Shown piece by piece: positions 4,725 through 47,604 of a DNA stretch of 64,000 nt. A model generated the notes under the pieces. That model was given only the letters and a program-made list of their open reading frames with translations. It was not told the origin of the DNA and searched no databases. This stretch comes from Anaeromyxobacteraceae bacterium (GTDB taxonomy: Bacteria; Myxococcota; Myxococcia; Myxococcales; Anaeromyxobacteraceae), in the NCBI GenBank assembly GCA_035656915.1, contig DASRRJ010000018.1, forward strand, positions 49,816 to 113,815. Reading direction: 5' to 3'. Positions within the stretch are counted from its first letter, which is position 1, and every line of letters starts with the position of its first letter. The translations under genes were made by a program, and so were the position numbers.

Positions 4725-4743
4725 GATGCGTCTCCTTGCGAGG

Positions 4744-6741
4744 CTACTCCGCGCCCGCGGCGAGGGCCGTGGGCGCGGTGAACTGCGGGTGCGCGCGGAT
4801 GAGCTCCAGCGCGTCGGCGGAGGCGTCCGCCGGGAACGGGGAGGAGGAGCGGGCGAGCCGGGCCAGCCAGCGCGCGTCGAGCGGCCGCACCAGATCGTCG
4901 CGCGACGTCGCCGCGGCGGTGGTCTCGGCCTTGGGCCCCGAGGCGTCGCCCGCGCCCACGAAGAACCCGGCCAGGAGGAGCGCGCTCCGCACCGCGGTGG
5001 CGGTGCTGTAGGTGAAGAGGGTCGCGCCGGGCGCGCAGCGCAGGCGGACCGCGCGGAACGCGGCGGCTGTCCAGAGCGCCGGGTTCTGCTTGGGAGAGAA
5101 GGGATCCCAGAAGACGAGATCGGCCCGCGCCGGCTCGCGCGCCAGCGCCTCGAGGGCGTCGCCCTCTACCAGCCTCCAGCCGGCGGCCGCCTCCTGGTGG
5201 CGTCCGGTGGCGAGGATCGCCCGGGCCGCGGCGAGGTCCTCGCCGGAGAGGCCGAGCCGGGCGGCGCCCTCGTCGGAGGTCGCGAGCGAGAGCGCGCCAA
5301 GGTCGCGCTCGAAGCTCACCAGCTCCAGCCGGCGCGCGCCGGGCGGCGCCGCGCGGGCGGCGCGCAAGGCGGCGAGGGCGTTCGAGGCGGCCCCGAGCCC
5401 CACGTCGAAGAGCACCAGGGGAGCGCCGCGCTCCGTGAGGCGGGCCGCGAGGCGCGACTGGGCCACGTAGAGCTGCTCCGACTCGGCGGTGGGGCCGATG
5501 ACCGGGTGCATCACCTCGCCCACCACCCGGTCGCGAACCGCGGCCGCGCCCTCGCTCGTCTGCACGATCTCGAAGCGGTCCGGCGGCGGCGGCACCGGGA
5601 CTCCCGGCTGGCGCCCCTCGGGGTCGTGCTCGTGCCGGTCGATGGCCGCGAGCGTCTCCCGGGCGAAGCGCTCGTAGCGCCCCTCCTCGATGGCGGCGCG
5701 GATGCCGCGCATCAGCTCGAGGTAGTGGTGCAGGTTGTGGACGGCGAGCAGCCGCGGCCCGAGCGGCTCCTTGCACTTCATGAGGTGGTGCAGGTAGCCG
5801 CGCGGGTGGGCGCGGCAGGTGGGACAGGCGCAGACGGGGTCGAGCGGCTCCTGCGAGAGCCGGTGATCGCCGCGGGTGAGCCGCACCCGGCCGGTGGAGG
5901 TGAAGGCGGTGCCCTGCCACGCCATGACGGTGGGGATGACGCAGTCGAACATGTCCACGCCGTGCGCGACCATCTCCAGGATGTCGGGCGGGGTGCCCAC
6001 GCCCATCAGGTAGCGCGGCCGGTCCTCCGGGAGCAGCTCCGCCGCGCGGGCCACCACCTCCGAACGTTGGGCGCGGGTGTCGCCGACGGCGAGCCCCCCG
6101 ATGGCGAAGCCATCGAAGGGGTGCTGGGTGAGGAAGCGCGCCGACTCGGTCCGGAGCTCGGGCGAGAGGCCGCCCTGGACGATGGCGAAGAGGGCCTGCT
6201 CCGGGTCCTGCCGCGCGGCGAGGCTGCGCAGCGCCCAGCGGTGGGTGCGCTCCATCGCCTCGCGGATGGCGCTCGGCTCGGCGGTGGAGGGGAGGCAGAT
6301 GTCGAGCACCATCATCACGTCGGAGCCGAGCGCGGTCTGCACCTCGATCGACCGCTCCGGGGAGAGGTGGTGGTAGCGGCAGTCGACGTAGCTCTTGAAG
6401 CGCGCCCCCTCCTCGGTGATGGTCCGGTCCTTCGCGAGCGAGAAGATCTGGAAGCCGCCCGAGTCGGTGAGGATGGGCCGGTCCCAGCCCATGAAGCGGT
6501 GCAGGCCACCGAAGTGGCGCATCGCCTCTGGACCGGGCCGCAGCAGCAGGTGGTAGGTGTTGCCGAGGACGATCTCGGCGCCGAGGCCGCGCAGGTCCTC
6601 GGGCGTGAGGCCGGTGACGGTGGCGCGGGTCCCGACCGGCATGAAGGCCGGGGTCTCCACCCGCCCGTGGGGGGTGGTGAAGGCGCCGCGCCGCGCGCGG
6701 GTCCCCACGTCGCGGGGGCCTGGGTGGAAGCGGAAAGGCAT
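4744..6741 (-). CDS. tgt: Queuine tRNA-ribosyltransferase (Tgt) fused in-frame to an MnmC-like (DUF752) SAM methyltransferase domain
   Basis: The ORF was trimmed to Met140 (ATG at 6741; MPFRFHPGPRDVGTRARRGAFTTPHGRVETPAFMPVGT...). It has the Tgt motifs LTDSGGFQIF, AIVQGGL and the C-terminal Zn site CxCxxC...H. There is no stop before a roughly 280-aa C-terminal extension with DLVFWDPFSPKQNPALWT, which is typical of the MnmC N-terminal methyltransferase domain. 665 aa in total. Confidence 0.75.
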   Translation of the reverse strand: MPFRFHPGPRDVGTRARRGAFTTPHGRVETPAFMPVGTRATVTGLTPEDLRGLGAEIVLGNTYHLLLRPGPEAMRHFGGLHRFMGWDRPILTDSGGFQIFSLAKDRTITEEGARFKSYVDCRYHHLSPERSIEVQTALGSDVMMVLDICLPSTAEPSAIREAMERTHRWALRSLAARQDPEQALFAIVQGGLSPELRTESARFLTQHPFDGFAIGGLAVGDTRAQRSEVVARAAELLPEDRPRYLMGVGTPPDILEMVAHGVDMFDCVIPTVMAWQGTAFTSTGRVRLTRGDHRLSQEPLDPVCACPTCRAHPRGYLHHLMKCKEPLGPRLLAVHNLHHYLELMRGIRAAIEEGRYERFARETLAAIDRHEHDPEGRQPGVPVPPPPDRFEIVQTSEGAAAVRDRVVGEVMHPVIGPTAESEQLYVAQSRLAARLTERGAPLVLFDVGLGAASNALAALRAARAAPPGARRLELVSFERDLGALSLATSDEGAARLGLSGEDLAAARAILATGRHQEAAAGWRLVEGDALEALAREPARADLVFWDPFSPKQNPALWTAAAFRAVRLRCAPGATLFTYSTATAVRSALLLAGFFVGAGDASGPKAETTAAATSRDDLVRPLDARWLARLARSSSPFPADASADALELIRAHPQFTAPTALAAGAE

Positions 6742-29549: not shown

Positions 29550-30770
29550 TCAGCGCCAGCGCACCGTCCACATGTAGCGCGCGTAGGTGCCAGGCGGCTC
29601 GAGCCGGCCGTCGAAGATGGGCGAGAACCAGAGGAAGAGGGCGGCGCAGCCGGCCGCGAGCGCCGCCGCCGCGGGCCGCGCGGCGCGCTCCGGCAGGAGG
29701 CGCAGGAGCGCCCAGACCACCGCCGGCCCGAGCCAGAGCGAGGCGGGGTAGAAGTAATAGAAGATCTGCGCCCGCGGCAGCGCCGCCCAGAAGAGGAGCG
29801 GCGCCCAGTAGAGGAGGGCGAGGTGCCGGTCGGCGCGGGCGGCGCGCCGCCGCAGCGCGGCGAGCCCGAGCCAGAGGGTGGCCGGCAGGGCGCAGGCGAA
29901 GAGCAGCGGATTCCCGCCGGCCCAGACGTAGCGCTCGCCCGCCGCGGAGCGCTCGAAGTGGTACCAGGCCGGGCGCAGCAGGGTGGGCCACTCCCAGAAG
30001 CGCGAGTGGTACGGGTGGGTGGCGAGGTCCACCCGGCCGAAGCCGGAGAGCATGCGGAGCTGGTAGGCCGGGATGCCGGCGAGCGGGGTGGCGTCCCTCG
30101 CGAGCAGCGACAGCGGCAGGAACGGGACGACGTAGGCCAGGACGGCGAGGGCCACGCCGGCGAGGCGACGCCGAGGCGGCGCGTCCGACCAGAGCACGGC
30201 CAGGACGCAGAACGGGGCCGCCGACCACTTGCAGGCCATGGCGAGGCCGAGCGCGGCCCAGCCGAGCCACGGCCCCCACCCGGCCCCACCGCGCCGCACC
30301 CGGCGCAGCCCCGCCAGCGCGAAGCCGGCCGAGAAGGGCTCGAGCATGGCGGTGCGGCTCTGCACGAACCAGAGGAAGTCGACCGCGGTGAGCCAGACCG
30401 CCGCCTCCGCGGCCCAGCCGGGGAAGCCGAGGTCCCGCAGGAGCGCCCCCACCGAGAGGAGCGCCCAGAGCCCGAAGGCGGCGGTCACCAGCCGGTAGGC
30501 GGCCGGCTCCGAGGCGAGGTGGAGCCCCTCGGAGAGGACGCGCCCGCCGAGCCCCAGCAGCCACTTCGCGAACGGCGGGTGCTCCCAGTTGAGGTCGCCC
30601 GCGAGGTGGGCCAGCGCCTTCGCCGCTGGGACGTAATGGTTCTCGTCGAAGACCAGTCCGGGCGGGTCGGCGGCGTGGGCGGCGAAGAGCGCGCCGAAGG
30701 CGCCGACTACCGCGAGGGGTCCGGCTGCGCGGGCGAGCGTCGCCGGGACGGGCAGCGGGGGGCCGGCCAT
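29550..30770 (-). CDS. Polytopic membrane glycosyltransferase, GT39/PMT (dolichyl-phosphate-mannose protein mannosyltransferase)-like or ArnT-like
   Basis: The ORF was trimmed to Met23 (ATG at 30770). It has about 11 TM helices. An N-terminal DE motif in loop 1 (VFDENHYV) is typical of GT-C PMT-type enzymes. Confidence 0.6.
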   Translation of the reverse strand: MAGPPLPVPATLARAAGPLAVVGAFGALFAAHAADPPGLVFDENHYVPAAKALAHLAGDLNWEHPPFAKWLLGLGGRVLSEGLHLASEPAAYRLVTAAFGLWALLSVGALLRDLGFPGWAAEAAVWLTAVDFLWFVQSRTAMLEPFSAGFALAGLRRVRRGGAGWGPWLGWAALGLAMACKWSAAPFCVLAVLWSDAPPRRRLAGVALAVLAYVVPFLPLSLLARDATPLAGIPAYQLRMLSGFGRVDLATHPYHSRFWEWPTLLRPAWYHFERSAAGERYVWAGGNPLLFACALPATLWLGLAALRRRAARADRHLALLYWAPLLFWAALPRAQIFYYFYPASLWLGPAVVWALLRLLPERAARPAAAALAAGCAALFLWFSPIFDGRLEPPGTYARYMWTVRWR

Positions 30771-30828
30771 GCCGGGGAGTGTAGGCCGGCGGCCGGAGCG
30801 GCGCCCGGCCGTTAGACTCGGAGGCACC

Positions 30829-31929
30829 ATGCCCACCTTCCGCTACGCGAACCCGGACGTGATCCACTGGGGGCCGGGCTGTGTCCGCGAGCAGCTGGGA
30901 GAGGAGCTCCGGCGCGTGGGGGCGAGCCGCGTCCTCCTCGTCACCACGCGGAGCGCGGTCGAGGACCCGCGCCTCGCGCCCGCGGTCGAGGCGGCGATCG
31001 GGGCGCGGCTGGCCGGACGAGCCGTGATCGGGCAGCACGCGCCGGCGCGGGCGGTGGTGGAGGCGGTGGAGGCGGCCCGCGCCGCCCGGGCCGACGCGCT
31101 CGTCTCGCTCGGCGGCGGCTCGCCCATCGACGCCGCCAAGGCGGTGGCCTTCTCGCTCGCGAGCGGGCTCGACCTGGGGGCGCCCGACGCGCCGGCCCGC
31201 GCGCGCGGCGCGGCGCTCTCCGGGGCGCTGCCGCACGTCGCCATCCCCACCACGCTCTCGGTGGCCGAGCTGAACGCCGGCGCGGGCTTCAGCGCCGTGG
31301 GGACGCGCGAGAAGGTGGGGGTCTCCGCACCGCAGCTGCTCCCGGTGGCGGTGCTCTACGACGCCGAGCTGGCGGTGCGCACGCCGCTCCCGCTCTGGCT
31401 CTCGACCGGCCTGCGCGCCGTGGACCACGCCGCCGAGACGCTTTTGTCCGAGGGCGAGCACCCGCTGCCCGACGCCGCCGCGCTCGAGGGGCTGCGACGC
31501 CTCGCGGCCGCGCTCCCGGCGGCGCGCGAGCGCCCCGGCGACGAGGCCGCCCGCACCGAGGGTCAGCTCGGCGCCTGGCTCACCTACCTCCTCCCGGGCC
31601 CGGCTGCGCGCGGCCTCTCCCACCTGCTCGGGAAGCGGCTCGGGTCGCGCCACGGGATCGCCCACGGGGTGACCTCCTGCCTGCTCCTGCCGCACGTGCT
31701 CCGCTACCTCGCCCCGCGCGCCCCCGAGGTGATGGACCAGATCGCGGCGGCGCTCGGCGCGCTCGACGCGCCCGGCGGCGTGGCCGCGCTCGTCGCCCGG
31801 CTCGACCTGCCGCAGCACCTGTCCGCCTGGAACCTGTCCGACGACGACCTGGTCGAGGCGGCGCGGCCGCTCGCGAGCCCGGAGCGCCCGCTGGAGGATC
31901 TGGTGGGGATCCTGCGGGCGGCGCGGTAG
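30829..31929 (+). CDS. Iron-containing alcohol dehydrogenase family protein (maleylacetate reductase-like)
   Basis: GGAGG sits 7 nt upstream of the ATG at 30829. GGGSPIDAAKAVA, and HGIAHG... in the metal site, are Fe-ADH family motifs. Confidence 0.8.
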   Translation: MPTFRYANPDVIHWGPGCVREQLGEELRRVGASRVLLVTTRSAVEDPRLAPAVEAAIGARLAGRAVIGQHAPARAVVEAVEAARAARADALVSLGGGSPIDAAKAVAFSLASGLDLGAPDAPARARGAALSGALPHVAIPTTLSVAELNAGAGFSAVGTREKVGVSAPQLLPVAVLYDAELAVRTPLPLWLSTGLRAVDHAAETLLSEGEHPLPDAAALEGLRRLAAALPAARERPGDEAARTEGQLGAWLTYLLPGPAARGLSHLLGKRLGSRHGIAHGVTSCLLLPHVLRYLAPRAPEVMDQIAAALGALDAPGGVAALVARLDLPQHLSAWNLSDDDLVEAARPLASPERPLEDLVGILRAAR

Positions 31930-35682: not shown

Positions 35683-35837
35683 CGGCGGTCTCCTGAGGCG
35701 GCGGTCGGGATCGAGTGCGGGGGCTGCGCGGCGTCTTCGCGGGGCGCTCGGGTGGGGTGGCCCCGAATCGGGCGCTACACCATCCGTCACCTTTGCAGGT
35801 TAGATGGAACCTTCCAAGCCCCCCTCTTTGGAGCCCT

Positions 35838-36887
35838 ATGCTCGAGCGCAGCGACGACGGAAGGCCTTTCCGGATCCCACGCTGGAAGCTCACGCCGTGC
35901 TGCGCCCTGGGCGCTCACGCCGCCGCGGGCCCTCGCGCCGCCGTCGCACCGGCGAGCGGCAGCCCGGCCGCCGATCCGCCCGCGGCTCCCGCTGGCAGGC
36001 AGTACCCGCCGCCGCCGCCGGCGGTGAGCCCGGTCGAGGGGCTCATCGACCTGCACGTCCACAGCGCCCCCGACGTCTTCGGCCGGGCCCTCGACGACGA
36101 GGACGCCGCCCGCACCTTCCGCGACCGCGGGCTGGAGGCCTTCGCCATCAAGGGCCACACCACGGTCACCGCCGACCGCGCCTGGCTGGCGCGCCGCCAC
36201 GTGCAGGGGATCGGGGTCTACGGCGGCGTGGTCCTGAACGGCGCCGCGGGCGGCCTCAACCCCGAGGCGGTGGAGTGGATGGCCCGAGTCCAGGGCTCGT
36301 ACGGGCGGCTGGTCTGGTTCCCGACCTTCGACGCCGACCACCACGTGCGGCACTTCCGCAACGGGCCGTCGGGCATTGGCGTCCTCGACGCGGAGGGGCG
36401 GGTGCTCCCGGCGGCGCGGCGCGTGCTCGAGGCCTGCGCCCGCCAGACGCTGGTGGTCTGCACCGGGCACCTGTCGGCGGCCGAGTCGCTCGCCGTGGTG
36501 CGTGCGGCGCGGGAGGTGGGCTGCGAGCGCATCAGCGTCACCCACGCGATGATGGAGGTGCCCGGCTTCACCCTGGAGCAGCTGCGAGAGGCGGCGGGGC
36601 TCGGCGCGAAGCTGGAGCTGGCCGCGCTCGGCCTACTCATGGGCCCCGACGCCCACCTCGCCTGGATGCGCGAGTGGCGGCGCGTCACCCACGCCGACAT
36701 GGCGGCGGCGATCCGCGCCATCGGCGCGCGGCACTTCCACCTCTCCACCGACCTCGGGCAGACGGGCAACCCCGTCCCCGCCGACGGCTACGCGCTGCTC
36801 GTCGAGGGGCTCCTGGCCGAGGGGATCACGCGCGACGAGATCCGGGTGATGGGGCGCGAGGTGCCGGGGGCGCTCCTGCTCGGCTGA
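35838..36887 (+). CDS. Metal-dependent TIM-barrel hydrolase-like protein (amidohydrolase-related), N-terminal signal-like region
   Basis: The ORF was trimmed to Met42. It has IDLHVHSAPD (HxH), ...CTGHLS, ISVTHAMME and HLSTDLGQ histidine motifs that suggest an amidohydrolase-like metal site. The family is not pinned down. Confidence 0.5.
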   Translation: MLERSDDGRPFRIPRWKLTPCCALGAHAAAGPRAAVAPASGSPAADPPAAPAGRQYPPPPPAVSPVEGLIDLHVHSAPDVFGRALDDEDAARTFRDRGLEAFAIKGHTTVTADRAWLARRHVQGIGVYGGVVLNGAAGGLNPEAVEWMARVQGSYGRLVWFPTFDADHHVRHFRNGPSGIGVLDAEGRVLPAARRVLEACARQTLVVCTGHLSAAESLAVVRAAREVGCERISVTHAMMEVPGFTLEQLREAAGLGAKLELAALGLLMGPDAHLAWMREWRRVTHADMAAAIRAIGARHFHLSTDLGQTGNPVPADGYALLVEGLLAEGITRDEIRVMGREVPGALLLG

Positions 36888-37079: not shown

Positions 37080-37406
37080 ATGCTCGAAGCGAGGTTCGAG
37101 GAGAGGAGGGGTGCACTTCTGGTGACCCCGCTGGCGGCGTTGGACGCCGAGGCCGCGCCGGAGCTGCGGCGGGTCGTCGGGGAACGCGCCAGCGGGAGGT
37201 CGCTGGTCGTCGTCTCCCTGGCACAGGTCCGGGAGGTGGACTCCTCCGGGCTGGCGGGGCTCCTGGCGGTGCTGAAGCGGATGGCGCCCGGCGGCGAGCT
37301 GCGGCTCGCGGCCGTCCCACCTCGCACGCGCGACATCCTGATGGCGACCCATCTCGACGAGGTGTTTCCGCAATTCGAGGATGCGGCCGCCGCCCTGCGG
37401 CGATGA
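37080..37406 (+). CDS. STAS-domain anti-sigma-factor antagonist (SpoIIAA/RsbV-like)
   Basis: 108 aa. VVVSLAQVREVDSSGLAGLLAVLKR carries the conserved phosphorylatable Ser in a DSSG context. Its stop overlaps the GT2 start as ATGA. Confidence 0.8.
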   Translation: MLEARFEERRGALLVTPLAALDAEAAPELRRVVGERASGRSLVVVSLAQVREVDSSGLAGLLAVLKRMAPGGELRLAAVPPRTRDILMATHLDEVFPQFEDAAAALRR

Positions 37407-39250
37407 TCCCGACCGCTCCAGAGACCCGCGAGCGGTGGTACTTCTCGCGCTACGAGGACCGGCTCCCCGCGGAGCCGCTCCGGGTCAGCCCGGCGCGCGA
37501 CTTCGCTTTCCAGGCCCTGGCGGTGCTCGCGACGGCCCTCGGGGTGCACTACCTCGTCTGGCGCTGGGGGTGGTCGCTGAACCCGGACGCCCTGGCCTTC
37601 TCCGTGGCGGTCGCCGTCGCCGAGACGCTGGCCTTCCTGGGCGCGACCCTGTTCTTCCTGTCGGTGTGGAGGATCCAGGATCCGGTGGTCCGGCCGCCGC
37701 CCCGCACGGCGAACGAGATCCGCGAGACGCCGCTCCCGATCGACCGACCCATCCGCGTGGACGTGCTCATCGCCACCTTCAACGAGCCGGTGGAGCTGGT
37801 GCGACTGTCGGTGCAGGACGCCAAGCGGCTCGGCTACCCCCACCCGCTCACGCTCCGGATCCACGTCCTCGACGACGGGCGGCGCCCGGCGATGGCCCGC
37901 ATGGCGCGGGAGGAGGGGGTCGGCTACCTGACGCGCTCCGGAAACCAGGGGTTCAAGGCGGGGAACCTGCGGAACGGCCTCGAGCAGACCGACGGTGACC
38001 TGGTCGTGATCTGCGACGCGGACACCCGCCCGCTGCCCGGCCTGCTCGCCGACACGCTCGGCCACTTCCGCGACCCGAGCGTCGCCTGGGTGCAGACGCC
38101 GCAGTGGTTCTACGACGTCGATCCGGGCACCCCGCTGCCGGAGTGGCTGGCGCGCGCGGCGCGGCTGGGGCGGCCGGGGAGGCTGATCGGGCGGATGCTC
38201 GAGGCGGTGATCGGGCCGGTGGCGGTGGGCGCCGATCCGCTCGCCGCCGATCCGGCCGCCTTCTACGAGATCGTCCAGCGGGGCCGGAACTGGTGCAACG
38301 CCTCCTTCTGCTGCGGTGCCGGGAGCATCCACCGGCGCGAGGCGGTGATGGAGGCCGCGCTCAAGGACTTCGGGCGCCGGGTCACCGAGTCGGTGCGCCC
38401 CTGGACGGCGAAGGTGCGCGACCCGGAGCTCCGCGAGGCGCTGAGGACGGCCTTGGTCGCCCAGGCAGCGCGCCACGCGGAGCTCACCCCCTACCGCTTC
38501 CACGTCTCCGAGGACATCTACACGAGCATCGCGCTCCACGCCGATCCCGAGCGCCGCTGGCGCTCCGTCTACCACCCGCGGGCGCTCACCCGCATGCTCT
38601 CGCCCCAGGATCTCCCTGCCTGGACGGTGCAGCGCTTCAAGTACGCCGCCGGGACGCTCGACATCGGCTGGCGCGACAACCCGCTGCGGCTCCCGGGGCT
38701 GACTCCCTGGCAGAAGCTCATGTACGGGGCCACCATCTACGCCTACCTGGCGCCGCTCTGGACCATCCCGCTGCTGTTCTCGCCGCTCGCCTACTTCTTC
38801 ATCGGGGTGACGCCGGTGCGCGCCTTCGACGCCGCCTTCTTCGGAAACCTCATCCCCTTCCTGCTGGCGAGCCGGCTCGCGTTCGCCGTCCGCGCCTGGG
38901 GCGTGCCCACCTGGCGCGCCGAGCAGTTCCACCTCGCCTCGTGCTGGCTGAACCTGCGGGCGCTGGGGCACGTGCTGGCCGGCCGCCCGCTGCGCTTCGA
39001 GGTCACGCCCAAATCGGGCGCGCGCCGGCGCTCGCTCTCGCTCGTGGCGCCGCACCTGGCGTTCATGGCCGCGGCGGTGGTCGGGATCGCCTACCGCGGC
39101 GCGCGGCTGGCCGCGGACTCGGGCCCGCCCCACGCGACCGCCTTCGCCTCCAACGTCTTCTGGGCCGCGCACACCAGCCTGTGCTTCCTGCCCTTCATCC
39201 TCGCCGCGCTGGCGGTCTCGCTCCGGCGCGAGGGGGGAGGAGCGCGATGA
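37403..39250 (+). CDS. Family-2 processive glycosyltransferase, cellulose-synthase (BcsA/CrdS)-like, membrane-embedded
   Basis: 615 aa. Two N-terminal TM helices are followed by GT-A motifs (DVLIATFNEP, HVLDDG, ICDADT = D, D, D) and a Q(R)xRW-like QRFKYAAG. There are 6 C-terminal TM helices. No PilZ domain is present. Confidence 0.8.
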   Translation: MIPTAPETRERWYFSRYEDRLPAEPLRVSPARDFAFQALAVLATALGVHYLVWRWGWSLNPDALAFSVAVAVAETLAFLGATLFFLSVWRIQDPVVRPPPRTANEIRETPLPIDRPIRVDVLIATFNEPVELVRLSVQDAKRLGYPHPLTLRIHVLDDGRRPAMARMAREEGVGYLTRSGNQGFKAGNLRNGLEQTDGDLVVICDADTRPLPGLLADTLGHFRDPSVAWVQTPQWFYDVDPGTPLPEWLARAARLGRPGRLIGRMLEAVIGPVAVGADPLAADPAAFYEIVQRGRNWCNASFCCGAGSIHRREAVMEAALKDFGRRVTESVRPWTAKVRDPELREALRTALVAQAARHAELTPYRFHVSEDIYTSIALHADPERRWRSVYHPRALTRMLSPQDLPAWTVQRFKYAAGTLDIGWRDNPLRLPGLTPWQKLMYGATIYAYLAPLWTIPLLFSPLAYFFIGVTPVRAFDAAFFGNLIPFLLASRLAFAVRAWGVPTWRAEQFHLASCWLNLRALGHVLAGRPLRFEVTPKSGARRRSLSLVAPHLAFMAAAVVGIAYRGARLAADSGPPHATAFASNVFWAAHTSLCFLPFILAALAVSLRREGGGAR

Positions 39251-40590
39251 GCTTCCTGCGCGGGCTGCTGACGGCGCGCTCCCACCTCGCCTTCCTGGTG
39301 GGGCTGACCGCCGCCGTGGCGGTGGTCCGGATCACCTCGCGGCTGGGCCGCGCCGGGGAGGCGACGACGCTCCGCGAGCTGGTGGCGCCGCTCCCGCGGT
39401 CGCTGCCGCTGCGGGCTCCGGGGCGCGTCGGCGCCCGCGAGCGATCGCTGGCGCGGGCCGCCTTCGCCTACCTGGAGCGCAACACCGATGAGGCCACCGG
39501 GCTGGCGCGCTCGGTGGCCGGGTATCCCTCCACCACCATGTGGGAGGTGGGCTCGCAGCTCATGGCACTGCTCGCCGCGGAGGATCTCGACCTGGTCTCG
39601 CGCGACGGGGCGCGGCGCCGCGCCGCCCGGGTGGTCTCCGCGCTCGCCTCGCTGCCGCTCTGCGACGGGAGGCTGCCGAACAAGGCCTACGACACGCGGA
39701 CCCTCGCGATGGTGGATTACGGCAACCGGCCCGCCCCCGAGGGGATCGGCTGGTCCGCGCTCGATCTGGGCCGCGTCCTCTCCGCGCTCGGCCTGGTGAT
39801 GCGCCGCTACCCTGAGCTCGCGCCTCAGATCGAGCGGGCGACCGCGAGCTGGGACCTGCAGGCGCTGAGCGACGGTGACGTGCTCCGGGGCGCCACGCGC
39901 CGGCCCACCGGCGAGCTGGAGCGCCATCAGGAGGGGCGGCTGGGGTACGAGCAGTACGCCGCGCGGGCGCTCCTGCCCTGGGGGGTCGCCGCCTCGAGCG
40001 CGCTCGACTACCGCTCCCACCTCGCCGCGGCCGAGATCTACCGAATGGCCGTGCCGGTGGACGACCGCCGGCCGGAGGATCACGGCGGGACGCACGCCGC
40101 GGTCCTCTCCGAGCCGTGGATCCTCGCCGGGATCGAGCAGGGGTTCGACGCGGTCAGCGAGGCGCTGGCGCGGCGGGTGCTCGAGGTGCAGGCGCGCCGG
40201 GCCGACGGGACCGGGCGGATCACCGCCTTCTCGGAGGACGCCATCGACCGGCCGCCCGGCTTCGCCTACTCGGCGATCCTGAACGGCGGTCGCTCCTGGA
40301 CCGCCTTCGCGGCCGACGGCTCCCCCGCGCCCGCCACCTTTTCGACCAAGGCCGCGCTCGGCTGGGCCGCGCTCTTCGGCGGCCCCTACTCCGACCGGCT
40401 GCGGGAGGCCGCGCTGGCGCTGGTGGCGCCGGGCGCCGGCGCCTGGGCCGGGCGCTACGACGCCGGCGGCGAGGTGAACCGGGTGCTCTCGCTCAACACC
40501 AACGCGGTGATCCTGGAGGCGCTCTCGTACCAGCTGCGAGGTCCGTTCTCGCGTCGCCCGGTCCGGCTGCCGCGGCAGGTGGCGCGATGA
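39247..40590 (+). CDS. Conserved large-domain protein (DUF3131-like by recollection), paralog A, N-terminal TM anchor
   Basis: Its start overlaps the GT2 stop as ATGA. 447 aa. It shares the motifs GYPSTT/SVW(E/D)(V/L)GS, LPNKAYDT, G(I/W)SALDLGR, EGRLGYEQYAA and NTNAVILE with the downstream paralog. The DUF3131 label is from memory. Confidence 0.6.
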   Translation: MSFLRGLLTARSHLAFLVGLTAAVAVVRITSRLGRAGEATTLRELVAPLPRSLPLRAPGRVGARERSLARAAFAYLERNTDEATGLARSVAGYPSTTMWEVGSQLMALLAAEDLDLVSRDGARRRAARVVSALASLPLCDGRLPNKAYDTRTLAMVDYGNRPAPEGIGWSALDLGRVLSALGLVMRRYPELAPQIERATASWDLQALSDGDVLRGATRRPTGELERHQEGRLGYEQYAARALLPWGVAASSALDYRSHLAAAEIYRMAVPVDDRRPEDHGGTHAAVLSEPWILAGIEQGFDAVSEALARRVLEVQARRADGTGRITAFSEDAIDRPPGFAYSAILNGGRSWTAFAADGSPAPATFSTKAALGWAALFGGPYSDRLREAALALVAPGAGAWAGRYDAGGEVNRVLSLNTNAVILEALSYQLRGPFSRRPVRLPRQVAR

Positions 40591-42569
40591 GGGCGCTGGG
40601 CCTGTCCGCGCTCCTCCTGGCCGCGCGGGTGGCCGGCGCCCAGCAGCAGTGCCCCGCGCCGGCCCCCCCGCCCTCGCCCGAGGCGGCCTCCGTCGCGCGG
40701 GTGGCCTGGACCTACTTCGAGCGCAACTATCGCCCGGAGACCGGCATGGTGGACTCGGTCGAGGGCTACCCGAGCACCTCGGTGTGGGACCTCGGCTCCT
40801 CGATCCTGGCAACGGTCGCGGCGCGCCGGCTCGGCGTGCTCTCCGAGCCGGACTTCGACCGGCGCGTGCGAGCGCTGCTGGGGACGCTCTCGCGGCTGCC
40901 GCTCTTCGAGGGCGAGCTCCCGAACAAGGCCTACGACACCACCACCGGAGGGATGACCGACTACGCGAACAGGCCCTCGCCCGGCGGGATCGGCGTGTCG
41001 GCGCTCGACCTCGGGCGGCTCGCGGCCGCGCTGCGCGCGCTCGCCTGCGCGGAGCCGGCGCTCCGGCCGGAGGTGGAGCGGGTGCTGGCGCGCTGGCGCT
41101 GGTGCCGGCTGCTCGGCGACGGAGAGCTGCACGGGATGCTGCGGGGCGGCGCGGGCGCCGTGCAGGTGGTGCAGGAGGGACGGCTCGGCTACGAGCAGTA
41201 CGCGGCCGAGGGGCTGGCCGGGCTCGGGCTCGACGTCGCTCGCGCGCGCCGCTACGACCGCCACTCCGCCGAGGAGGTGATCCTGGGCGTGCCGGTGCGG
41301 CGCGACGCGCGCGACGCCCGCCGCTTCGGTGCGGTGGACGCGCTCGTGACCGACCCCTGGGTCCTCTCCGCGCTCGAGTACGGCCCCGACGCGGCCCGCG
41401 CGCCGCTGCTGCGGCGGCTCTTCGAGGTCCAGAAGCGGCGCTGGCAGCGCACCGGCGTGGTCACCGCCGCGAGCGAGGACCACGTCGACCGGGCGCCCTG
41501 GTTCGTCTACGACGCCGTCTGGGCGGACGGCGGCGCCTGGAAGGCGGTGACGCCGGAGGGGCGCGAGGTCCCCGAGCTGCGCGGGCTCTCGGTGAAGGCC
41601 GCCTTCGCCCTGGCGGCGCTCTTCCCGATCGACCCCTATGCGCAGGTCCTGCTGCAGGCGGCCGGCCGCGCCTACGATCCGGGGCGGGGGTTCTTCGCGG
41701 GGGTCTACGAGCGCGGCGGCCTGAACCGCTCGGTGAACGCCAACACCAACGCGGTCATCCTGGAGGTGCTGCTCTTCCAGCGCTCCGGCCCCTTGCTGGG
41801 CTGTGGGAGCTGCGCGCAGGAGCCGGCCGGGGCGGCGCTGCGCCTTCCGGCGGGCGCGCGGAGCTGCCCAGCGGTCGCCCGGACGAGCGCGCCGGGCGGC
41901 GGCGCCGGGCTAGAGAGCGCAGCCGGGCTCGGGCCCAAGCCGCCGCTCCTCGCGCCGGTGAGCACCGGCACCCGCTTCCTGCGCCTCGACGGCACCTTCT
42001 TCCTGGGCTACCGCGGCCTCGACGGTCCGACCGCCGGCGGGGTCGCGACCGCCTGGCTCGGCCGCGCCATCTTCCTGCGGCTCGGAGGCGAGGGCACCCC
42101 CAACTCCACCTACGGCCACTCCCGGTTCCTGTGGGGCTTCGGCTACGACGACTGGCGGGACAACACCTTCTTCCTCCACGTGGACAACTGGGGGCCCATC
42201 CGGCTCGAGGACAGCCTCTCGCGCTCGGCCGAGGTGAACGCGGGCTACCGCCTCCCGACCCTCTGCGCGAAGAGCTGGCTCTGCGCCTCCCCGGTCGCGC
42301 AGGTCACCACGCCGTTCGTGGGCGGGCCGTACCTGAGCGCTCGCGTGAACGTCACCTTCTGGAAGGACTGGTTCCTGATGGGCGGGCTCGGCTGGACCGT
42401 GCCCGGCGTGCTGCCCGGTCCGCTCGGCACGCCGAGCTGGCGGGTCATGTACGGGCTCGGCCGCTGGAGCTGGAAGCCCGGGAGCGTCTACGTCACCTAT
42501 TACGACTGGGGGCCCGATTCGCACAGCGGCAACGGGATCCTCGCCATCGGCATCAACTGGGCGTTCTAG
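40587..42569 (+). CDS. Conserved large-domain protein (DUF3131-like), paralog B, fused to a C-terminal putative outer-membrane beta-barrel domain
   Basis: ATGA overlap again. A signal peptide is present (MRALGLSALLLAARVAGAQQ). The region 30-430 is paralogous to the preceding gene. The C-terminal roughly 200 aa are rich in alternating aromatic/Gly beta-strand patterns and end in ...GINWAF, a terminal Phe typical of OM beta-barrels. Confidence 0.6.
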   Translation: MRALGLSALLLAARVAGAQQQCPAPAPPPSPEAASVARVAWTYFERNYRPETGMVDSVEGYPSTSVWDLGSSILATVAARRLGVLSEPDFDRRVRALLGTLSRLPLFEGELPNKAYDTTTGGMTDYANRPSPGGIGVSALDLGRLAAALRALACAEPALRPEVERVLARWRWCRLLGDGELHGMLRGGAGAVQVVQEGRLGYEQYAAEGLAGLGLDVARARRYDRHSAEEVILGVPVRRDARDARRFGAVDALVTDPWVLSALEYGPDAARAPLLRRLFEVQKRRWQRTGVVTAASEDHVDRAPWFVYDAVWADGGAWKAVTPEGREVPELRGLSVKAAFALAALFPIDPYAQVLLQAAGRAYDPGRGFFAGVYERGGLNRSVNANTNAVILEVLLFQRSGPLLGCGSCAQEPAGAALRLPAGARSCPAVARTSAPGGGAGLESAAGLGPKPPLLAPVSTGTRFLRLDGTFFLGYRGLDGPTAGGVATAWLGRAIFLRLGGEGTPNSTYGHSRFLWGFGYDDWRDNTFFLHVDNWGPIRLEDSLSRSAEVNAGYRLPTLCAKSWLCASPVAQVTTPFVGGPYLSARVNVTFWKDWFLMGGLGWTVPGVLPGPLGTPSWRVMYGLGRWSWKPGSVYVTYYDWGPDSHSGNGILAIGINWAF

Positions 42570-42594: not shown

Positions 42595-43497
42595 ATGAGA
42601 GGGCGTGGCGGGTTCCTGCTGGCGGCGTCGGCGGCGCTGGCGATGGGCTGCGGCCTCATGCCGCCGGAGAAGCCCGGGACGACCCAGCAGTCGACGCCGA
42701 CGCCTCCGCCGGTGCCCGGGCCCACCCAGACGCCGTCGCCCGCTCCGTCCTCGGGGCTGCCGTCCCCGCTGCCCGGCTACCACCTGCTCTGGCACGACGA
42801 GTTCGACGGCGCGGGCCTCGACCCGACGAAGTGGACCGCCTCGACCGGCCCTCGACGCGACGCGACGCTCACCACCGACGCGATCTCGGTCCACGACGGG
42901 CTGCTCACCGTCACCACCTACACCGACGGCGGGAAGCACTACACCGGCTTCCTCACCACCGGCAGCGCCTTCCAGCCGACCTTCGGGTACTTCGAGGCGC
43001 GGATCCGCTTCAACGACGCGCCCGGGGAGTGGTGCGCCTTCTGGCTCCTCTCGCCGACGAACGGGGTCCCGCTCGGAGATCCGGCCACGGCGGGCGCCGA
43101 GGTGGACATCGTCGAGCACCGTGTCACCGACCCGAAGGGCTGGGACGCGCTGCGCGACCTCGTCAAGGAGGAGGTGCACTGGGACGGGTACGGCGCCGAC
43201 CGGAAGGACTCGCCGGAGCACACCGTCCCGCTCGCCGGCGGCGGTCCCGTGCAAGGCGCCTGGCACACCTACTCGGTGCTCTGGACGGACGCGGGCTACT
43301 GGTTCTACGCGGACGGATCGCTGCTCTGGAACTACGACCAGGGGCTCTCGAAGCGGGGCGAGCAGGTGCTGCTCACCTGCGAGGTCGAGGACGGCACCTG
43401 GGCGGGCTACGTCCCGGCCGGCGGCTACGGCTCGCTGGCCAGCAGCGCCACCCACATGGACGTGGACTGGGTGCGGGTCTGGGCGCCGGGGCCGTAG
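42595..43497 (+). CDS. Glycoside hydrolase family 16 lipoprotein (endo-beta-1,3/1,3-1,4-glucanase-like)
   Basis: GGGGAGGGG SD. The signal peptide has a lipobox (LAMGCG) and a Pro/Thr-rich linker. The catalytic GH16 motif EVDIVEH (ExDxxE) and a jelly-roll-type sequence are present. Confidence 0.8.
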   Translation: MRGRGGFLLAASAALAMGCGLMPPEKPGTTQQSTPTPPPVPGPTQTPSPAPSSGLPSPLPGYHLLWHDEFDGAGLDPTKWTASTGPRRDATLTTDAISVHDGLLTVTTYTDGGKHYTGFLTTGSAFQPTFGYFEARIRFNDAPGEWCAFWLLSPTNGVPLGDPATAGAEVDIVEHRVTDPKGWDALRDLVKEEVHWDGYGADRKDSPEHTVPLAGGGPVQGAWHTYSVLWTDAGYWFYADGSLLWNYDQGLSKRGEQVLLTCEVEDGTWAGYVPAGGYGSLASSATHMDVDWVRVWAPGP

Positions 43498-46360
43498 TCC
43501 TCGGAGCCGGCCGCCTACTCCTCCGGCGCGCCAGCGCCGCGGCCGCGAGGAGCCCTGCCAGCGAGAGCGCGTCCCCTCCACCGCTCGAGGCGCAGCCCCC
43601 CCGACCGCCGGCAGCGGCGGAGGCCGGCGTGGGCGATCCTCCAGCCGTCGAGGGCGCGGTGGCCCCCCGGATGACGCCCGAGAGCATGAAGTCGCGCGAC
43701 GAGCTCCCCACGAACACCGGGGTCTCGCACGCCGGCGATGTCCAGGCGTGCGCCGCCGGGTCCCAGCGCTCGAACGCCTCCGGCGCCAGCGCGACGGTCA
43801 CGCGCCGGCTGGCGCCCGGATCGAGCGCCACCTTGGAGAACCCCGCCAGCCGGTGCGGCACCGGGTCGGCCTCCCCGGGGCAGGGTCCCACGTAGACCTG
43901 CGCCACCTCGGCGCCAGCGCGGCCGCCGGTGTTGGCGAGCGTGAACGAGACCTGGGCCGTGCGGCGGCCGGCGGCGTCCACCGTCGCCGGCGCGACCTCG
44001 AGGCCGGAGTAGCCGAAGGTGGTGTAGGAGAGGCCGTAGCCGAAGGGGAAGAGCGGCGCGATCCCCTTCGCGTCGTACCAGCGGTATCCCATGAGCAGCC
44101 CCTCCGACCAGGCGATCACCGGGCCGATCTGGTCCTGGGTGGGCGCGGGCTGCGCGCCGACCGGCGTCTGGTCGAGCGAGCGCGGGAAGGTGAGCGGGAG
44201 CTTGCCCGAGGGGTTCACGTCGCCGAAGAGCACCCGGGCGACGACGTCCCCCTGCCGCTGCCCCGGGTACCAGGCCTGCACCACCGCCGAGACGGCGGGG
44301 AGCCAGGGCATGCTGGTGCCCTGACCGGTGGTGAGCACCACGACCGTGCGCGGGTTGGCCGCCGCCACCGCGGCGATGAGCGCGTCCTGCTCGGACGGGA
44401 GCGAGAGGTCCAGCCGGTCGCGCTCCTCGGTCCCGTAATCCCGCGCGACCACCACCGCCACGTCAGAGGCGGCCGCCAGCGCCACCGCCTCGCGCGTGGT
44501 GGAGAGCACCGTGCCGGCCGGCATCTGCCACCCCAGCTTCAGATCCCCGCCGCGATCGGTCGCCACCCCGATGCTGGGGGCGTCGGCGACGTAGTCCACC
44601 CGAAGGTCGTGCTTCGTGCCGGCGGCGAGCTGCACGGTGGCGGACCTGGAGTCGAGCTCGTGCGAGCCGGAGTGGTCGATGACGAGCGCGCCGTCGAGCC
44701 ACACCCAGCCCTGGCCGCGGTCGGTGAGCGTGAAGGTGTAGGTGCCGGTCGCCGGCGCGGTGAGGGTGCCGTTCCAGCGGGCCGAGATCTTCTGCAGGGC
44801 GAAGCTCTCCGGGAGCTGCGGCTCGGAGGAGGCGTCGACGCTCGGGTAGTCGAAGAAGCCGAGCGAGACCGCCGCCTCGTGGTCCACCCGGATCACCTCC
44901 GCCGGGCCGGCGAAGCTCGGGTTGAGCCAGTACTGCGCCCGCAGGCCGCGGGTCCCGTCGTCGAACCCCTCCGGCGTGAGCACCGAGGAGGGGATGGCCG
45001 GCGGTCCCGGCAGGAGGTGCGCCGGCGAGACCGGGTCGCCACCGGGCGCGAACCTCACGTCCACCCCGGGTCCGGCGCGCTGGCGCAGGCCGTCGAGCGG
45101 AGTCACCGAGGAGGTCGGCTCCACCCGCGCCGCGCCGCCGCCCTGGGCCGCGGCGGTGTCGGCGTCGGCGCCGATGACCGCGATCGAGCGCAGCGCGCCG
45201 GCGGAGAGCGGGAGGAGCCCGTCGCGGTTCTGGAGCAGCACCACCCCCTGCTCGGCGATTTGCTCCGAGCGGTCGGAGTCGTCCGCCTCGGCGAGCGGCC
45301 CCGGTTGCACCGGCTGGTCCATGAGGCCGAGGCGGAACATGGAGCGCAGGATCCGGCGCGCCTTGTCGTCCACCACGTCGCGCGCCACCTCCCCGCGCTG
45401 GACCGCGCCGAGGAGCGAGTGGCCGAAATACTTCTCGAAGGCCAGCTCCTGGTCGAGGCCGGCCGTGGCCGCCAGCACCGTGCCGTGGATCGAGGCCCAG
45501 TCGCTGAGGACGTAGCCCTGGAAGCCCAGCTCGCCCTTGAGGACGTCGGTGAGGAGGTGGCGGTCCTCGCAGGCGAACGCGCCGTTCACGCGGTTGAAGC
45601 CGCACATCACGCTCCCCACCTGGGCGTCGGCGACCGCCGCCTGGTAGGGCCGGAGGTAGAGCTCTCGCAGGGCGCGCTCGTCCAGCTCGGCGTCCACCGT
45701 GAAGCGGTCGGTCTCCTGGCCGTAGGCGACGTAGTGCTTGGCGTCGGCGATCACCGGGTGCTTCTGGATGGCCTGGATGAACGGGGCGGCGAGGCGCGCC
45801 GCCAGGAGCGGGTCCTCGCCGAAGCCCTCGAAGGTGCGGCCGGCGAGCGGGTCGCGCGCGAGGTCCAGGGTGGGCCCGAGCAGCACGTTGTGCCCGGTGA
45901 GGAAGGCCTCGGCACCGAGCACGTCCCCCTGCTCGGAGGCCGCGGTGGGGTCGAAGCTCGCGGCGAGCGCGATGGGCGCGGGGAGCTGGGTGGCCCGACC
46001 GCCGTTCACCCGCTGGTAGGGGATGCGGATGCCCGCCGGGCCGTCGGTCATGGTCAGGGCCGGGATGCCGAGCCGGGCGATGGGGGCGTTGTAGTAGCCG
46101 TAGAGCAGGCAGCGCTCGCCCGTCGCGAGATCGATCTCCTCCTCGAGCGCCATGGCCCCGAGCAGCGCCTCGGCGCGCGCATCCGGCGGCTGGCTGGAGT
46201 CGGTCCAGGGCCGGCTCGCGGGCGGCCCCTGCTCCGAGCCGAGCGTCGGGCCAGGGCAGTACGGCGGTGGCGCGGCGCCGGCGTGGAGCGCGACCGAGGC
46301 GATCACTGCCGCGAGCAGCGCGAGCGCCCCTCGGTCTGCCTGAAACCCGGCGTGGAGCAT
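43373..46360 (-). CDS. Glycoside hydrolase family 3 beta-glucosidase with inserted PA14 domain and MYXO-CTERM-like C-terminal sorting region
   Basis: The ORF was trimmed to Met91 (signal peptide MLHAGFQADRGALALLAAVIASVALHA). The GH3 nucleophile motif GFQGYVLSDWASIHG is present. The PA14 region reads YWLNPSFAGPAEV...TGTYTFTLTDRGQGWVWLDGALVIDHSG. The C-terminal ...GGCASSGGGDALSLAGLLAAAALARRRSRRP resembles MYXO-CTERM. The ORF runs roughly 43 aa beyond it and overlaps the GH16 3' end by 125 nt. Confidence 0.8.
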   Translation of the reverse strand: MLHAGFQADRGALALLAAVIASVALHAGAAPPPYCPGPTLGSEQGPPASRPWTDSSQPPDARAEALLGAMALEEEIDLATGERCLLYGYYNAPIARLGIPALTMTDGPAGIRIPYQRVNGGRATQLPAPIALAASFDPTAASEQGDVLGAEAFLTGHNVLLGPTLDLARDPLAGRTFEGFGEDPLLAARLAAPFIQAIQKHPVIADAKHYVAYGQETDRFTVDAELDERALRELYLRPYQAAVADAQVGSVMCGFNRVNGAFACEDRHLLTDVLKGELGFQGYVLSDWASIHGTVLAATAGLDQELAFEKYFGHSLLGAVQRGEVARDVVDDKARRILRSMFRLGLMDQPVQPGPLAEADDSDRSEQIAEQGVVLLQNRDGLLPLSAGALRSIAVIGADADTAAAQGGGAARVEPTSSVTPLDGLRQRAGPGVDVRFAPGGDPVSPAHLLPGPPAIPSSVLTPEGFDDGTRGLRAQYWLNPSFAGPAEVIRVDHEAAVSLGFFDYPSVDASSEPQLPESFALQKISARWNGTLTAPATGTYTFTLTDRGQGWVWLDGALVIDHSGSHELDSRSATVQLAAGTKHDLRVDYVADAPSIGVATDRGGDLKLGWQMPAGTVLSTTREAVALAAASDVAVVVARDYGTEERDRLDLSLPSEQDALIAAVAAANPRTVVVLTTGQGTSMPWLPAVSAVVQAWYPGQRQGDVVARVLFGDVNPSGKLPLTFPRSLDQTPVGAQPAPTQDQIGPVIAWSEGLLMGYRWYDAKGIAPLFPFGYGLSYTTFGYSGLEVAPATVDAAGRRTAQVSFTLANTGGRAGAEVAQVYVGPCPGEADPVPHRLAGFSKVALDPGASRRVTVALAPEAFERWDPAAHAWTSPACETPVFVGSSSRDFMLSGVIRGATAPSTAGGSPTPASAAAGGRGGCASSGGGDALSLAGLLAAAALARRRSRRPAPRTTAPAPRPAPSPRPCGWRCWPASRSRRPGRSPPRCRPRPRR

Positions 46361-46584
46361 CCGATGGCCGTGCGCCGTGCGGCGACCCCCCTGCGAGCAA
46401 GGGTAGGGCGAGAGGGACGGCAGGCAACGAGCGGGCGGCCGCCGCTCGAGCCCGCGCCCGATGGCCGCGCCGCGACCACGCGCAGGCTCGCGCGCACGAG
46501 AGAGCCCGTCCGGGCGTGGTGCTCGCTCGGCCCGGTGGCTTAAATGGCGGAGATCTTGGAGCGCGGCTGGATCTGGAGGCAAGC

Positions 46585-47604
46585 ATGGCCGACACCATGA
46601 AGGCGTACGAGGTTCCGAAGCCCGGCTCACCCTTCACCCTGGTCGAGCGGCCGGTGCCTCGACCGGCCCCGGCCCAGGTGCGCATCGCCGTCGAGGCCTG
46701 CGGCATCTGCCACTCGGACGCGTACGTGAAGGGTGGGCAGTTCCCCGGGCTGACCCTCCCGCGCGTGCCGGGGCACGAGGTGGTCGGCCGCGTCGACGCG
46801 GTGGGGGACGGCGTGACCACCTGGCGGGTCGGGCAGCGCGTCGGGGTGGGCTGGCACGGCGGCCACTGCTTCGTCTGCGAGGCTTGTCGCGCCGGCGACT
46901 TCATCGAGTGCGCGCGCGGCCTCATCTGCGGCTTCAGCTACGACGGCGGCTACGCCGAGTACCTGATCGCTCCCCAGGAGGCGCTCGCCGCGGTCCCCGA
47001 CGCGCTCGACGCGGTGGCCGCCGCGCCGCTGCTCTGTGCCGGGGTCACCACCTTCAACGCGCTGCGCAACAGCGGCGCGCGCGGCGGCGAGCTGGTGGCG
47101 GTCCAGGGCATCGGAGGGCTCGGGCACCTCGGCATCCAGTACGCCCGCAAGCTCGGCTTCCACACCGTGGCGATCTCGCGCGGCGCCGACAAGCGCGCCC
47201 TGGCCCTCGAGCTCGGCGCGCACGAGTACGTCGACCAGGAGGCCGGCGACGCAGCGGCGGCGCTGCAGAAGCTCGGCGGAGCCCGCGCGATCCTCGCCAC
47301 CGCGCCCAACTCGCAGCTGATGTCGAAGCTGGTGGACGGGCTCGGCCGCAACGGCACGCTGCTCGTTGTGGGGGCGTCGCCGGATCCGATCCAGGTCTCG
47401 CCCTTCCAGCTCATCGGCCCGCGCCGGCGGCTGCAGGGGTGGCCGAGCGGCACGGCCAAGGACTCCGAGGAGGCGCTCGCCTTCAGCGCGCTCAACGGGG
47501 TGGCGTCGCGGAACGAGGTCTTCCCCCTGGAGCGCTGCAACGAGGCCTTCGAGCGGATGACGAGCAACAAGGCGCGCTTCCGGGTGGTGCTGAAGGTGCG
47601 CTGA
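46585..47604 (+). CDS. Zinc-dependent alcohol dehydrogenase (MDR superfamily)
   Basis: GGAGG SD. It has the catalytic Zn (GICHSD...GHE) and structural Zn (C..C..C...C: CFVCEACRAGDFIEC) motifs and a Rossmann GIGGLGH motif. Confidence 0.9.
   Translation: MADTMKAYEVPKPGSPFTLVERPVPRPAPAQVRIAVEACGICHSDAYVKGGQFPGLTLPRVPGHEVVGRVDAVGDGVTTWRVGQRVGVGWHGGHCFVCEACRAGDFIECARGLICGFSYDGGYAEYLIAPQEALAAVPDALDAVAAAPLLCAGVTTFNALRNSGARGGELVAVQGIGGLGHLGIQYARKLGFHTVAISRGADKRALALELGAHEYVDQEAGDAAAALQKLGGARAILATAPNSQLMSKLVDGLGRNGTLLVVGASPDPIQVSPFQLIGPRRRLQGWPSGTAKDSEEALAFSALNGVASRNEVFPLERCNEAFERMTSNKARFRVVLKVR

Follow-up and report, generated by a model that had tools for sequence, protein, structure and literature searches.

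A DUF3131 protein of Anaeromyxobacteraceae carrying a predicted 12-stranded outer-membrane beta-barrel, and its link to an uncharacterised glucan gene cluster

The fusion gene and its domains

The stretch of DNA analysed here (the window) comprises 64,000 nucleotides of a metagenome-assembled genome of an Anaeromyxobacteraceae bacterium (assembly GCA_035656915.1, contig DASRRJ010000018.1). It contains a gene whose 660-amino-acid product joins a DUF3131 domain, a predicted glycan-active enzyme, to a C-terminal domain that is probably an outer-membrane beta-barrel. The barrel belongs to a family linked across phyla to one type of glucan gene cluster. The features of the fusion gene, all on the forward (+) strand, are as follows.

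40587..42569, +: DUF3131-barrel fusion gene, a 660-codon open reading frame (ORF)
40587..40640, +: Sec signal peptide, residues 1-18 (MRALGLSALLLAARVAGA then QQQ), read by eye
40692..41786, +: DUF3131 domain (PF11329), residues 36-400, (alpha/alpha)6 glycoside-hydrolase-like fold
41787..41978, +: tail of the enzyme domain with Cys427, then a disordered Ala/Gly/Pro-rich linker, residues 401-464
41979..42566, +: predicted 12-stranded outer-membrane beta-barrel, residues 465-660, of an uncatalogued, internally duplicated family
42537..42566, +: C-terminal beta-signal strand ILAIGINWAF, read from the sequence

The ORF is a genuine gene at these coordinates. Its ATG at 40587 overlaps the stop codon of the upstream gene (ATGA), its 3' end reads aac tgg gcg ttc tag (N-W-A-F-stop, ending at 42569), and its GC content at third codon positions (GC3, ~0.87) is typical of real genes in this window of 75% GC. 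The exact protein is already deposited at NCBI as 'DUF3131 domain-containing protein [Anaeromyxobacteraceae bacterium]', annotated as DUF3131 only and with its C-terminus unannotated. About 85 clusters of full-length fusion orthologs are 50-82% identical to it, including those of Anaeromyxobacter paludicola and A. diazotrophicus. The initial annotation had regarded the protein as a paralog of the neighbouring conserved-domain protein, and this is confirmed by a shared match to PF11329 (E 7e-128 for the fusion protein, 6e-118 for the product of the upstream gene) and by 41% identity between the two. At the N-terminus, a basic n-region precedes a hydrophobic core and the cleavage motif A-G-A (AGA then Q), and residues 2-18 form an isolated helix in the AlphaFold2 (AF2) model, so that signal peptide cleavage would be expected after residue 18.

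The PF11329 match scores 427 bits against a cut-off of 20.3 and covers model positions 2-366 of 367. In the AF2 model of the full-length protein, which was built on 97 sequences and has a mean predicted local distance difference test score (pLDDT) of 89.9, the DUF3131 domain is mostly above 90, with a confident helical region at residues 31-400. In Foldseek searches with the full model, the top-ranking structures came from several glycoside hydrolase (GH) families of the beta-1,2-glucanase clan, namely, with a probability of 1.00, GH144 (3eu8 and 4qt9, E 1e-10; 5gzh, E 1e-8), GH192 (8xuj, E 3e-10), GH194 (8xuk, E 2e-8) and GH189 (8wy1, a cyclic-glucan-synthase cyclisation domain, E 5e-7), and in addition GH162 (6imu, E ~3e-7), which places the domain among the (alpha/alpha)6-barrels. 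Identity to these families is 10-15%, and a profile-to-sequence search gave a weak link from the DUF3131 profile to 8wy1 (E 0.0012). The acidic residues E197, E203, D240, E264 and E297 are among many that are invariant in DUF3131. The clan, with families GH144, GH162, GH189 and GH192-194 and with defining residues that correspond to E239, Y367 and F286 of XcSGL, is described in PMC12102758, and DUF3131 is absent from the families defined there; in the literature passages retrieved, DUF3131 is listed merely as a gene annotation. At fold level, the comparison supports the domain as a predicted glycan-active enzyme of the beta-1,2-glucanase/transglycosylase class, and to that extent also the glycan-active domain proposed initially.

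No match to residues ~401-660 was found in Pfam or NCBIfam. The AF2 model places twelve long antiparallel strands at residues 465-659 (pLDDT 80-97), closing into a barrel with an even number of amphipathic strands, most of which are hydrophobic on one face and polar or Gly-rich on the other, and many charged residues lie on the side predicted to face the lumen. The termini of outer-membrane barrels usually lie on the periplasmic side, and by this topology rule the connections would be of 2-7 residues on the periplasmic side and 3-14 residues on the outer side. The terminal strand has Gly at position -6, hydrophobic residues at -1, -3, -5, -7 and -9, and a terminal Phe; among 75 fusion orthologs the last residue is F in 63, Y in 7, L in 4 and W in 1, and hence aromatic or Leu in all 75. 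The strand pattern of the domain is far more than chance would give. Together with the signal peptide, the closed barrel and the diderm hosts, it indicates that the domain is probably an outer-membrane barrel dependent on the beta-barrel assembly machinery (BAM). The initial annotation had proposed a putative outer-membrane barrel ending in NWAF from a beta-strand pattern over the last ~200 residues, and both the pattern and the barrel hold in the amphipathic strands, their conservation among orthologs and the twelve strands of the model. In fold comparison, the domain scored 15.6 with AaaA, 15.4 with EstA, 13.6 with Hbp, 13.5 with NalP, 13.4 with KdgM, 13.1 with AIDA-I, 13.0 with the COG4313 channel, 12.7 with NanC, 12.4 with FapF and 12.1 with a designed 12-stranded barrel; BcsC and PgaA scored 8.0 and 7.9, and the first soluble folds 8.7 or less.

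Between the two domains, the linker is 50-95 amino acids long among the 75 orthologs (A 22%, G 19%, P 17%). Residues 436-462 have a pLDDT below 50 and are disordered, and the AF2 model contains no helix between residue 424 and the first strand (465). Two cysteines 254 residues apart, C173 and C427, are kept in 89-90 of the 97 alignment rows. A further pair, Cys560/Cys566, brackets periplasmic turn T3 and is kept only in Anaeromyxobacter and some myxobacterial versions.

The barrel family and its gene clusters

A word-indexed search with the barrel alone gave 7 relatives and an impression of extreme rarity, which was overturned when 1.84 billion representatives were searched exhaustively with an HMMER profile. 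This search recovered 129 proteins at E <= 1e-3, 97 of them at E <= 1e-10. The family occurs in Gammaproteobacteria, Zetaproteobacteria, Myxococcota and Pantoea. In nearly all of the recovered proteins the barrel lies at the extreme C-terminus, and the last residue across 134 retrieved family proteins is F in 61, L in 20, Y in 17 and W in 13. The barrel is internally duplicated: the motif [YW]SWGxGYDDWxPxTxSxxxNNWGP in hairpin b4-b5 recurs more weakly six strands on, in b10-b11, as YGFGYxxWxPxTxSLxYxNWGPN, giving a pseudo-twofold barrel (window 41979-42566; alignment A4). Conservation peaks at both motif hairpins, at periplasmic turn T2 (DWHPG, mean top-residue frequency 0.82) and where outer loops L3 and L6 begin. 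W, G, Y, D, N and P make up the nearly invariant positions, and the His of the DDWH motif is Arg in the fusion protein.

The family profile had no sequence match among PDB chains, none of the curated family models covers the domain, and no literature on the family was found. Two candidate identities were rejected. Membership of the YaiO family (PF19413 / TIGR04390) rested on a single sub-threshold match among 27 members (E 5e-4), with an hhalign probability of 0.07% against E. coli YaiO, and a catalytic barrel in the style of OMPLA, LpxR or OmpT was discarded when no invariant Ser/His-type residues were found.

Three architectures occur in the family. The simplest (A) is a signal peptide followed by the barrel (210-270 amino acids). 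In the majority (B), the signal peptide is followed by a Cys-containing domain of ~200 amino acids, a long Pro-rich linker and the barrel, and 76 of the 81 proteins scanned have no Pfam domain. The N-terminal domain of this form has the motifs LxCA…, VLxWNYC, GxGxWGF and CFPHPxTG, with no match in Pfam or NCBIfam. The third (C) is that of the fusion protein, with signal peptide, DUF3131, linker and barrel. Examples of architecture B are P0045 (locus L013, ~4651-6675), P0028, P0049, P0070, P0038 and P0021; its linkers are Pro-rich and TolA/FimV-like, and some of the proteins reach 1,200-1,800 amino acids. Small proteins without Pfam domains upstream in L005 and L011 were considered as homologs of the N-terminal domain of architecture B and rejected, being instead membrane-anchored and coiled-coil-like, and an upstream ORF in L009 looks spurious.

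Genomic linkage was scanned in species-representative genomes, seeded solely with the two barrel motifs (closer alignment), and the resulting 40 loci were annotated by tblastn with proteins of the window and of a Pantoea cluster. All hosts are diderm and belong to Pseudomonadota or Myxococcota (Halothiobacillaceae, Methylococcales, Crenothrix, Granulosicoccaceae, Thiotrichaceae, Mariprofundaceae, Polyangia, Kofleriaceae and Anaeromyxobacteraceae). DUF3131 occurs in 36 of the 40 loci, on the same strand and at most 4 kb upstream of the barrel in 30; in the four loci without it, contig ends cut the upstream flanks short. Every locus contains at least one of DUF3131, a glycosyltransferase family 2 (GT2) synthase, OpgC, SpoIIE or GH16, with GT2 linked in most loci and OpgC in many clusters. 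The usual order is GT2, DUF3131-A, DUF3131-B and the barrel gene, and the DUF3131 paralog adjoining the barrel gene is the one closest to the domain fused in the Anaeromyxobacteraceae protein.

Some loci encode the barrel in a gene of its own. In L011 it has its own signal peptide and a TAATG overlap with the preceding DUF3131 gene, and in L007 it is called as a separate gene in the same type of cluster. In L005 it is called separately and is probably stand-alone, with a 19-nucleotide overlap with DUF3131 that could be a frameshift. On the Pantoea piersonii megaplasmid (L012), the order is response regulator, three DUF3131 genes, 'cellulose synthase catalytic subunit', OpgC, a hypothetical protein, SpoIIE phosphatase, STAS and kinase, and the hypothetical protein is a barrel (hhalign probability 98.7%, E 1.5e-16 against the barrel profile). 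Translation of this gene (L012 8713-9630, NZ_CP115896.1, WP_120456589.1) from its annotated start, MHDES…, yields no signal peptide. Starting 37 codons upstream, at an in-frame ATG, would add MIHPGLPARGAGLLMIAFVASAAMPACA…, a signal peptide, and the deposited start is probably wrong. The Pantoea locus was reached with a more AT-rich relative (P0260) as the query; tblastn of the Anaeromyxobacter barrel against plasmids gave zero matches. Two other apparent stand-alone homologs were rejected as artefacts: P0001 starts 22 nucleotides from a contig end, and P0005 lies behind pieces of a broken DUF3131 gene of the same strand. P0005 belongs to a DUF3131-barrel gene on a 273-kb ENA contig (L001 7426-10570) that is split into three ORFs of 102, 149 and 189 amino acids with continuous tblastn homology, probably through assembly frameshift errors.

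The same uncharacterised gene set is reported from an accessory block of Klebsiella pneumoniae (PMC12974863) and from the Salmonella Mississippi island SGI3 (PMC3401170). On the Klebsiella, Salmonella and Pantoea islands, the annotation of the cluster goes no further than 'cellulose synthase, DUF3131, OpgC, hypothetical protein'.

In the window, the fusion gene is part of an operon whose other members, together with the adjacent GH3 gene, are listed below.

37080..37406, +: STAS-domain protein (anti-sigma-factor-antagonist type), first gene of the operon; Pfam STAS E 5e-12
37403..39250, +: BcsA-like membrane GT2 synthase; Pfam GT2 families
39247..40590, +: DUF3131 paralog A, 447 amino acids, N-terminal hydrophobic anchor or signal; PF11329 E 6e-118
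42595..43497, +: GH16 family protein, probable lipoprotein; Pfam GH16 E 8e-14
43373..46630, -: GH3 beta-glucosidase-like protein with a PA14 insert; Pfam GH3 N and C, PA14, Fn3-like

Three ATGA overlaps couple the STAS, GT2, DUF3131-A and fusion genes, and the synthase matches the BcsA structures 4hg6 and 5ej1 (phmmer, E ~1e-30). A. paludicola and A. diazotrophicus share the order STAS, GT2, DUF3131, fusion and GH16, with GH3 nearby in both (L002 and L003). The GH16 gene lies directly 3' of the fusion gene in the Anaeromyxobacter loci examined, and GH16 and GH3 are limited to the Anaeromyxobacter version of the cluster. The GH16 protein starts with MRGRGGFLLAASAALAMGC (…LAMGC…), a plausible lipobox, followed by a Pro/Thr/Ser-rich stretch of ~40 residues, and would be a lipoprotein glucanase on a stalk. 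The coordinates of the GH3 gene are those of the longest ORF, and its real start is probably further in. Immediately 5' of the STAS gene lies a DUF6282 family gene (35697-36887, +, E 7e-61), which is probably outside the system because it is missing from the corresponding position in A. paludicola and A. diazotrophicus. At 29550-30842 (-), a homolog of PMT-like (dolichyl-phosphate-mannose-type) membrane glycosyltransferases adjoins an iron-type alcohol dehydrogenase (Fe-ADH) gene, and these two genes also flank the A. paludicola cluster (L002).

Elsewhere in the family, the clusters usually include a partner-switching module of a SpoIIE/PP2C-domain response regulator, STAS and a HATPase_c_2 kinase, sometimes with Hpt (seen in L005, L007, L011, L012 and many of L013-L052). 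The Anaeromyxobacter operon retains only the STAS gene of this module, ATGA-coupled to the synthase. By analogy with SypA/SypE in Vibrio, this arrangement hints at post-translational control of the synthase.

Proposed role and alternatives

The barrel is probably an outer-membrane subunit dedicated to an uncharacterised glucan system, as a conduit or a dock, because its family, whether fused or alone, is almost always found in one glucan cluster. This system would combine a BcsA-like GT2 synthase of the inner membrane with two or three DUF3131 enzymes in the periplasm, a STAS/SpoIIE regulator and often an OpgC-type acyltransferase. In Anaeromyxobacteraceae, the barrel gene would have merged with DUF3131-B, the gene usually found ahead of it. 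The fusion protein would be exported by Sec and its last ~196 residues inserted by BAM as a 12-stranded barrel, leaving the DUF3131 enzyme to hang in the periplasm under the barrel on a flexible tether of 50-95 amino acids. A periplasmic location of the enzyme is the most likely one because both barrel termini are periplasmic and no pore-spanning helix is predicted. The synthase would extrude a beta-glucan into the periplasm, the tethered enzyme would trim or transglycosylate it at the outer membrane, and the barrel would pass the product across the membrane, or at least dock the enzyme there. The enzyme fold and OpgC point to a beta-1,2 or osmoregulated periplasmic glucan (OPG)-like product. 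The analysis itself shows the predicted barrel fold, the family with its gene linkage and the fold class of the enzyme; the exporter role, a pore, the direction of transport, the periplasmic site of the enzyme and the glucan linkage are inferences from these. The conduit-plus-tether model as a whole is one towards which we lean with modest confidence.

Several observations weigh against this model. No member of DUF3131 or of the barrel family has a known transport or enzyme activity. In Anaeromyxobacter, the neighbouring GH16 and GH3 genes suggest a beta-1,3-glucan rather than a beta-1,2-glucan, and a periplasmic OPG-like product, as the OpgC genes would indicate, may make export unneeded and leave the barrel as an anchor only. 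Moreover, most family members have the different Cys-containing N-terminal domain and very long Pro-rich linkers, and a simple periplasmic tether is hard to reconcile with proteins that reach ~1,800 amino acids.

The possibility that the barrel is a non-conducting anchor, fixing the DUF3131 enzyme or another N-terminal domain at the inner face of the outer membrane, is one that we consider unlikely. It would fit the fusions to two unrelated N-terminal modules, the periplasmic OPG-like product to which OpgC points in many clusters, and the high conservation of periplasmic turn T2, a possible docking site for a partner. However, a lipid anchor would be a cheaper tether, stand-alone barrels have no covalent cargo, and the charged predicted lumen face and the conserved starts of L3 and L6 suggest more than anchoring. 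That the C-terminal domain is instead a soluble beta-sandwich or lectin-like carbohydrate-binding module (CBM), its terminal Phe being a coincidence, has the general precedent that a glycoside hydrolase with an all-beta C-terminal module usually carries a CBM there. The initial annotation had named such a module, or the lack of a barrel, as the contrary outcome; the AF2 model and the fold comparison indicate a barrel, and the soluble alternative is very improbable.

An autotransporter-like (type V) arrangement, in which the barrel would move the DUF3131 passenger to the cell surface to act on extracellular glucan, is distinctly unlikely. None of 27 family barrels matches an autotransporter Pfam family at E <= 1, no alpha-helical linker spanning the pore is predicted (the region that would supply it includes disordered residues 436-462), and the same barrel exists as its own gene with a signal peptide and without a passenger. 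Disulfide loops in passengers hinder autotransport, and the Cys173/Cys427 pair, if the two residues do pair and are oxidised in the periplasm, would block it. We give slightly less credence still to an uptake porin for oligosaccharides (KdgM/NanC-like) or a glucan-retaining surface lectin (Wzi-like) in place of an exporter. GH16 and GH3 are limited to the Anaeromyxobacter version, the partner conserved across phyla is a biosynthetic GT2 synthase rather than a catabolic or uptake locus, and the barrels are unrelated in sequence to the KdgM family.

Current models of synthase-dependent secretion (cellulose, poly-N-acetylglucosamine, alginate and Pel) involve large porins of 16-18 strands linked to tetratricopeptide repeats (TPRs). 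The family described here is a much smaller barrel, whose link with a BcsA-like synthase and with enzymes of beta-1,2-glucanase fold holds across phyla. Naming it as the outer-membrane component, which rests on structure predictions and gene linkage, would complete an envelope-spanning parts list, suggest which DUF3131 paralog acts at the outer membrane, and open to direct testing a system whose cluster is present in clinically relevant Enterobacterales. It is also an uncatalogued domain that protein-family databases could model. A broader reading, in which the 12-stranded duplicated barrels are a new family of outer-membrane channels forming the exit of an unrecognised synthase-dependent beta-glucan pathway (BcsA-like GT2, DUF3131 enzymes, OpgC and partner-switching control) in Proteobacteria and Myxococcota, the islands of Klebsiella, Salmonella and Pantoea among them, is put forward tentatively, as possible rather than probable. 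If it is true, the Anaeromyxobacter fusion would be a Rosetta stone for physical coupling of enzyme and pore, and the first enzyme-porin fusion described for polysaccharide export.

Comparison with known systems

The OpgGH/OpgC pathway resembles the present system in combining a GT2 synthase with a periplasmic glucan-processing enzyme, as OpgH and OpgG do, and OpgC itself occurs in many of the clusters. However, the synthase here is BcsA-like rather than OpgH, and the OpgGH system is not known to include an outer-membrane barrel dedicated to it. DUF3131 and the beta-1,2-glucanase clan have the (alpha/alpha)6 fold in common, with a weak profile link to GH189.

Among barrels, KdgM and NanC are likewise 12-stranded and demonstrate that a barrel of this size can pass oligosaccharides. 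They serve uptake in catabolic loci, whereas the barrel described here goes with a biosynthetic synthase and carries a twin-hairpin motif of its own, with no sequence similarity to the KdgM Pfam family. Type Va autotransporters (EstA, 3kvn; AaaA, 9oqa; NalP, 1uyo) differ in sequence, the fusion protein having no match to PF03797 at E <= 0.1, and in their pore helix, which is not predicted here. In addition, type Va barrels always come with a covalent passenger, whereas the present barrel is also an independent gene (L011, L007, L012 and probably L005), and the domain in the position of the passenger has a widely spaced, conserved Cys pair.

A further close parallel is with BcsC, PgaA, PelB and AlgE/AlgK, in which a C-terminal outer-membrane barrel follows a periplasmic domain, shares an operon with a processive membrane GT2 synthase (BcsA-like here), and is presumed to pass the nascent glycan across the outer membrane. 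BcsC, PgaA and PelB have 16-stranded barrels and TPRs, in contrast to the 12 strands of the fusion protein, which has no TPRs. The likeness to BcsC and PgaA drawn by the initial annotation, whose overall interpretation is partly supported, thus stands for the GT2-synthase operon and is loose for the barrel. Outer-membrane barrels are already known from synthase-dependent glycan operons; what is new is a 12-stranded, duplicated, TPR-less family that is fused, in Anaeromyxobacteraceae, to a glycoside-hydrolase-like enzyme.

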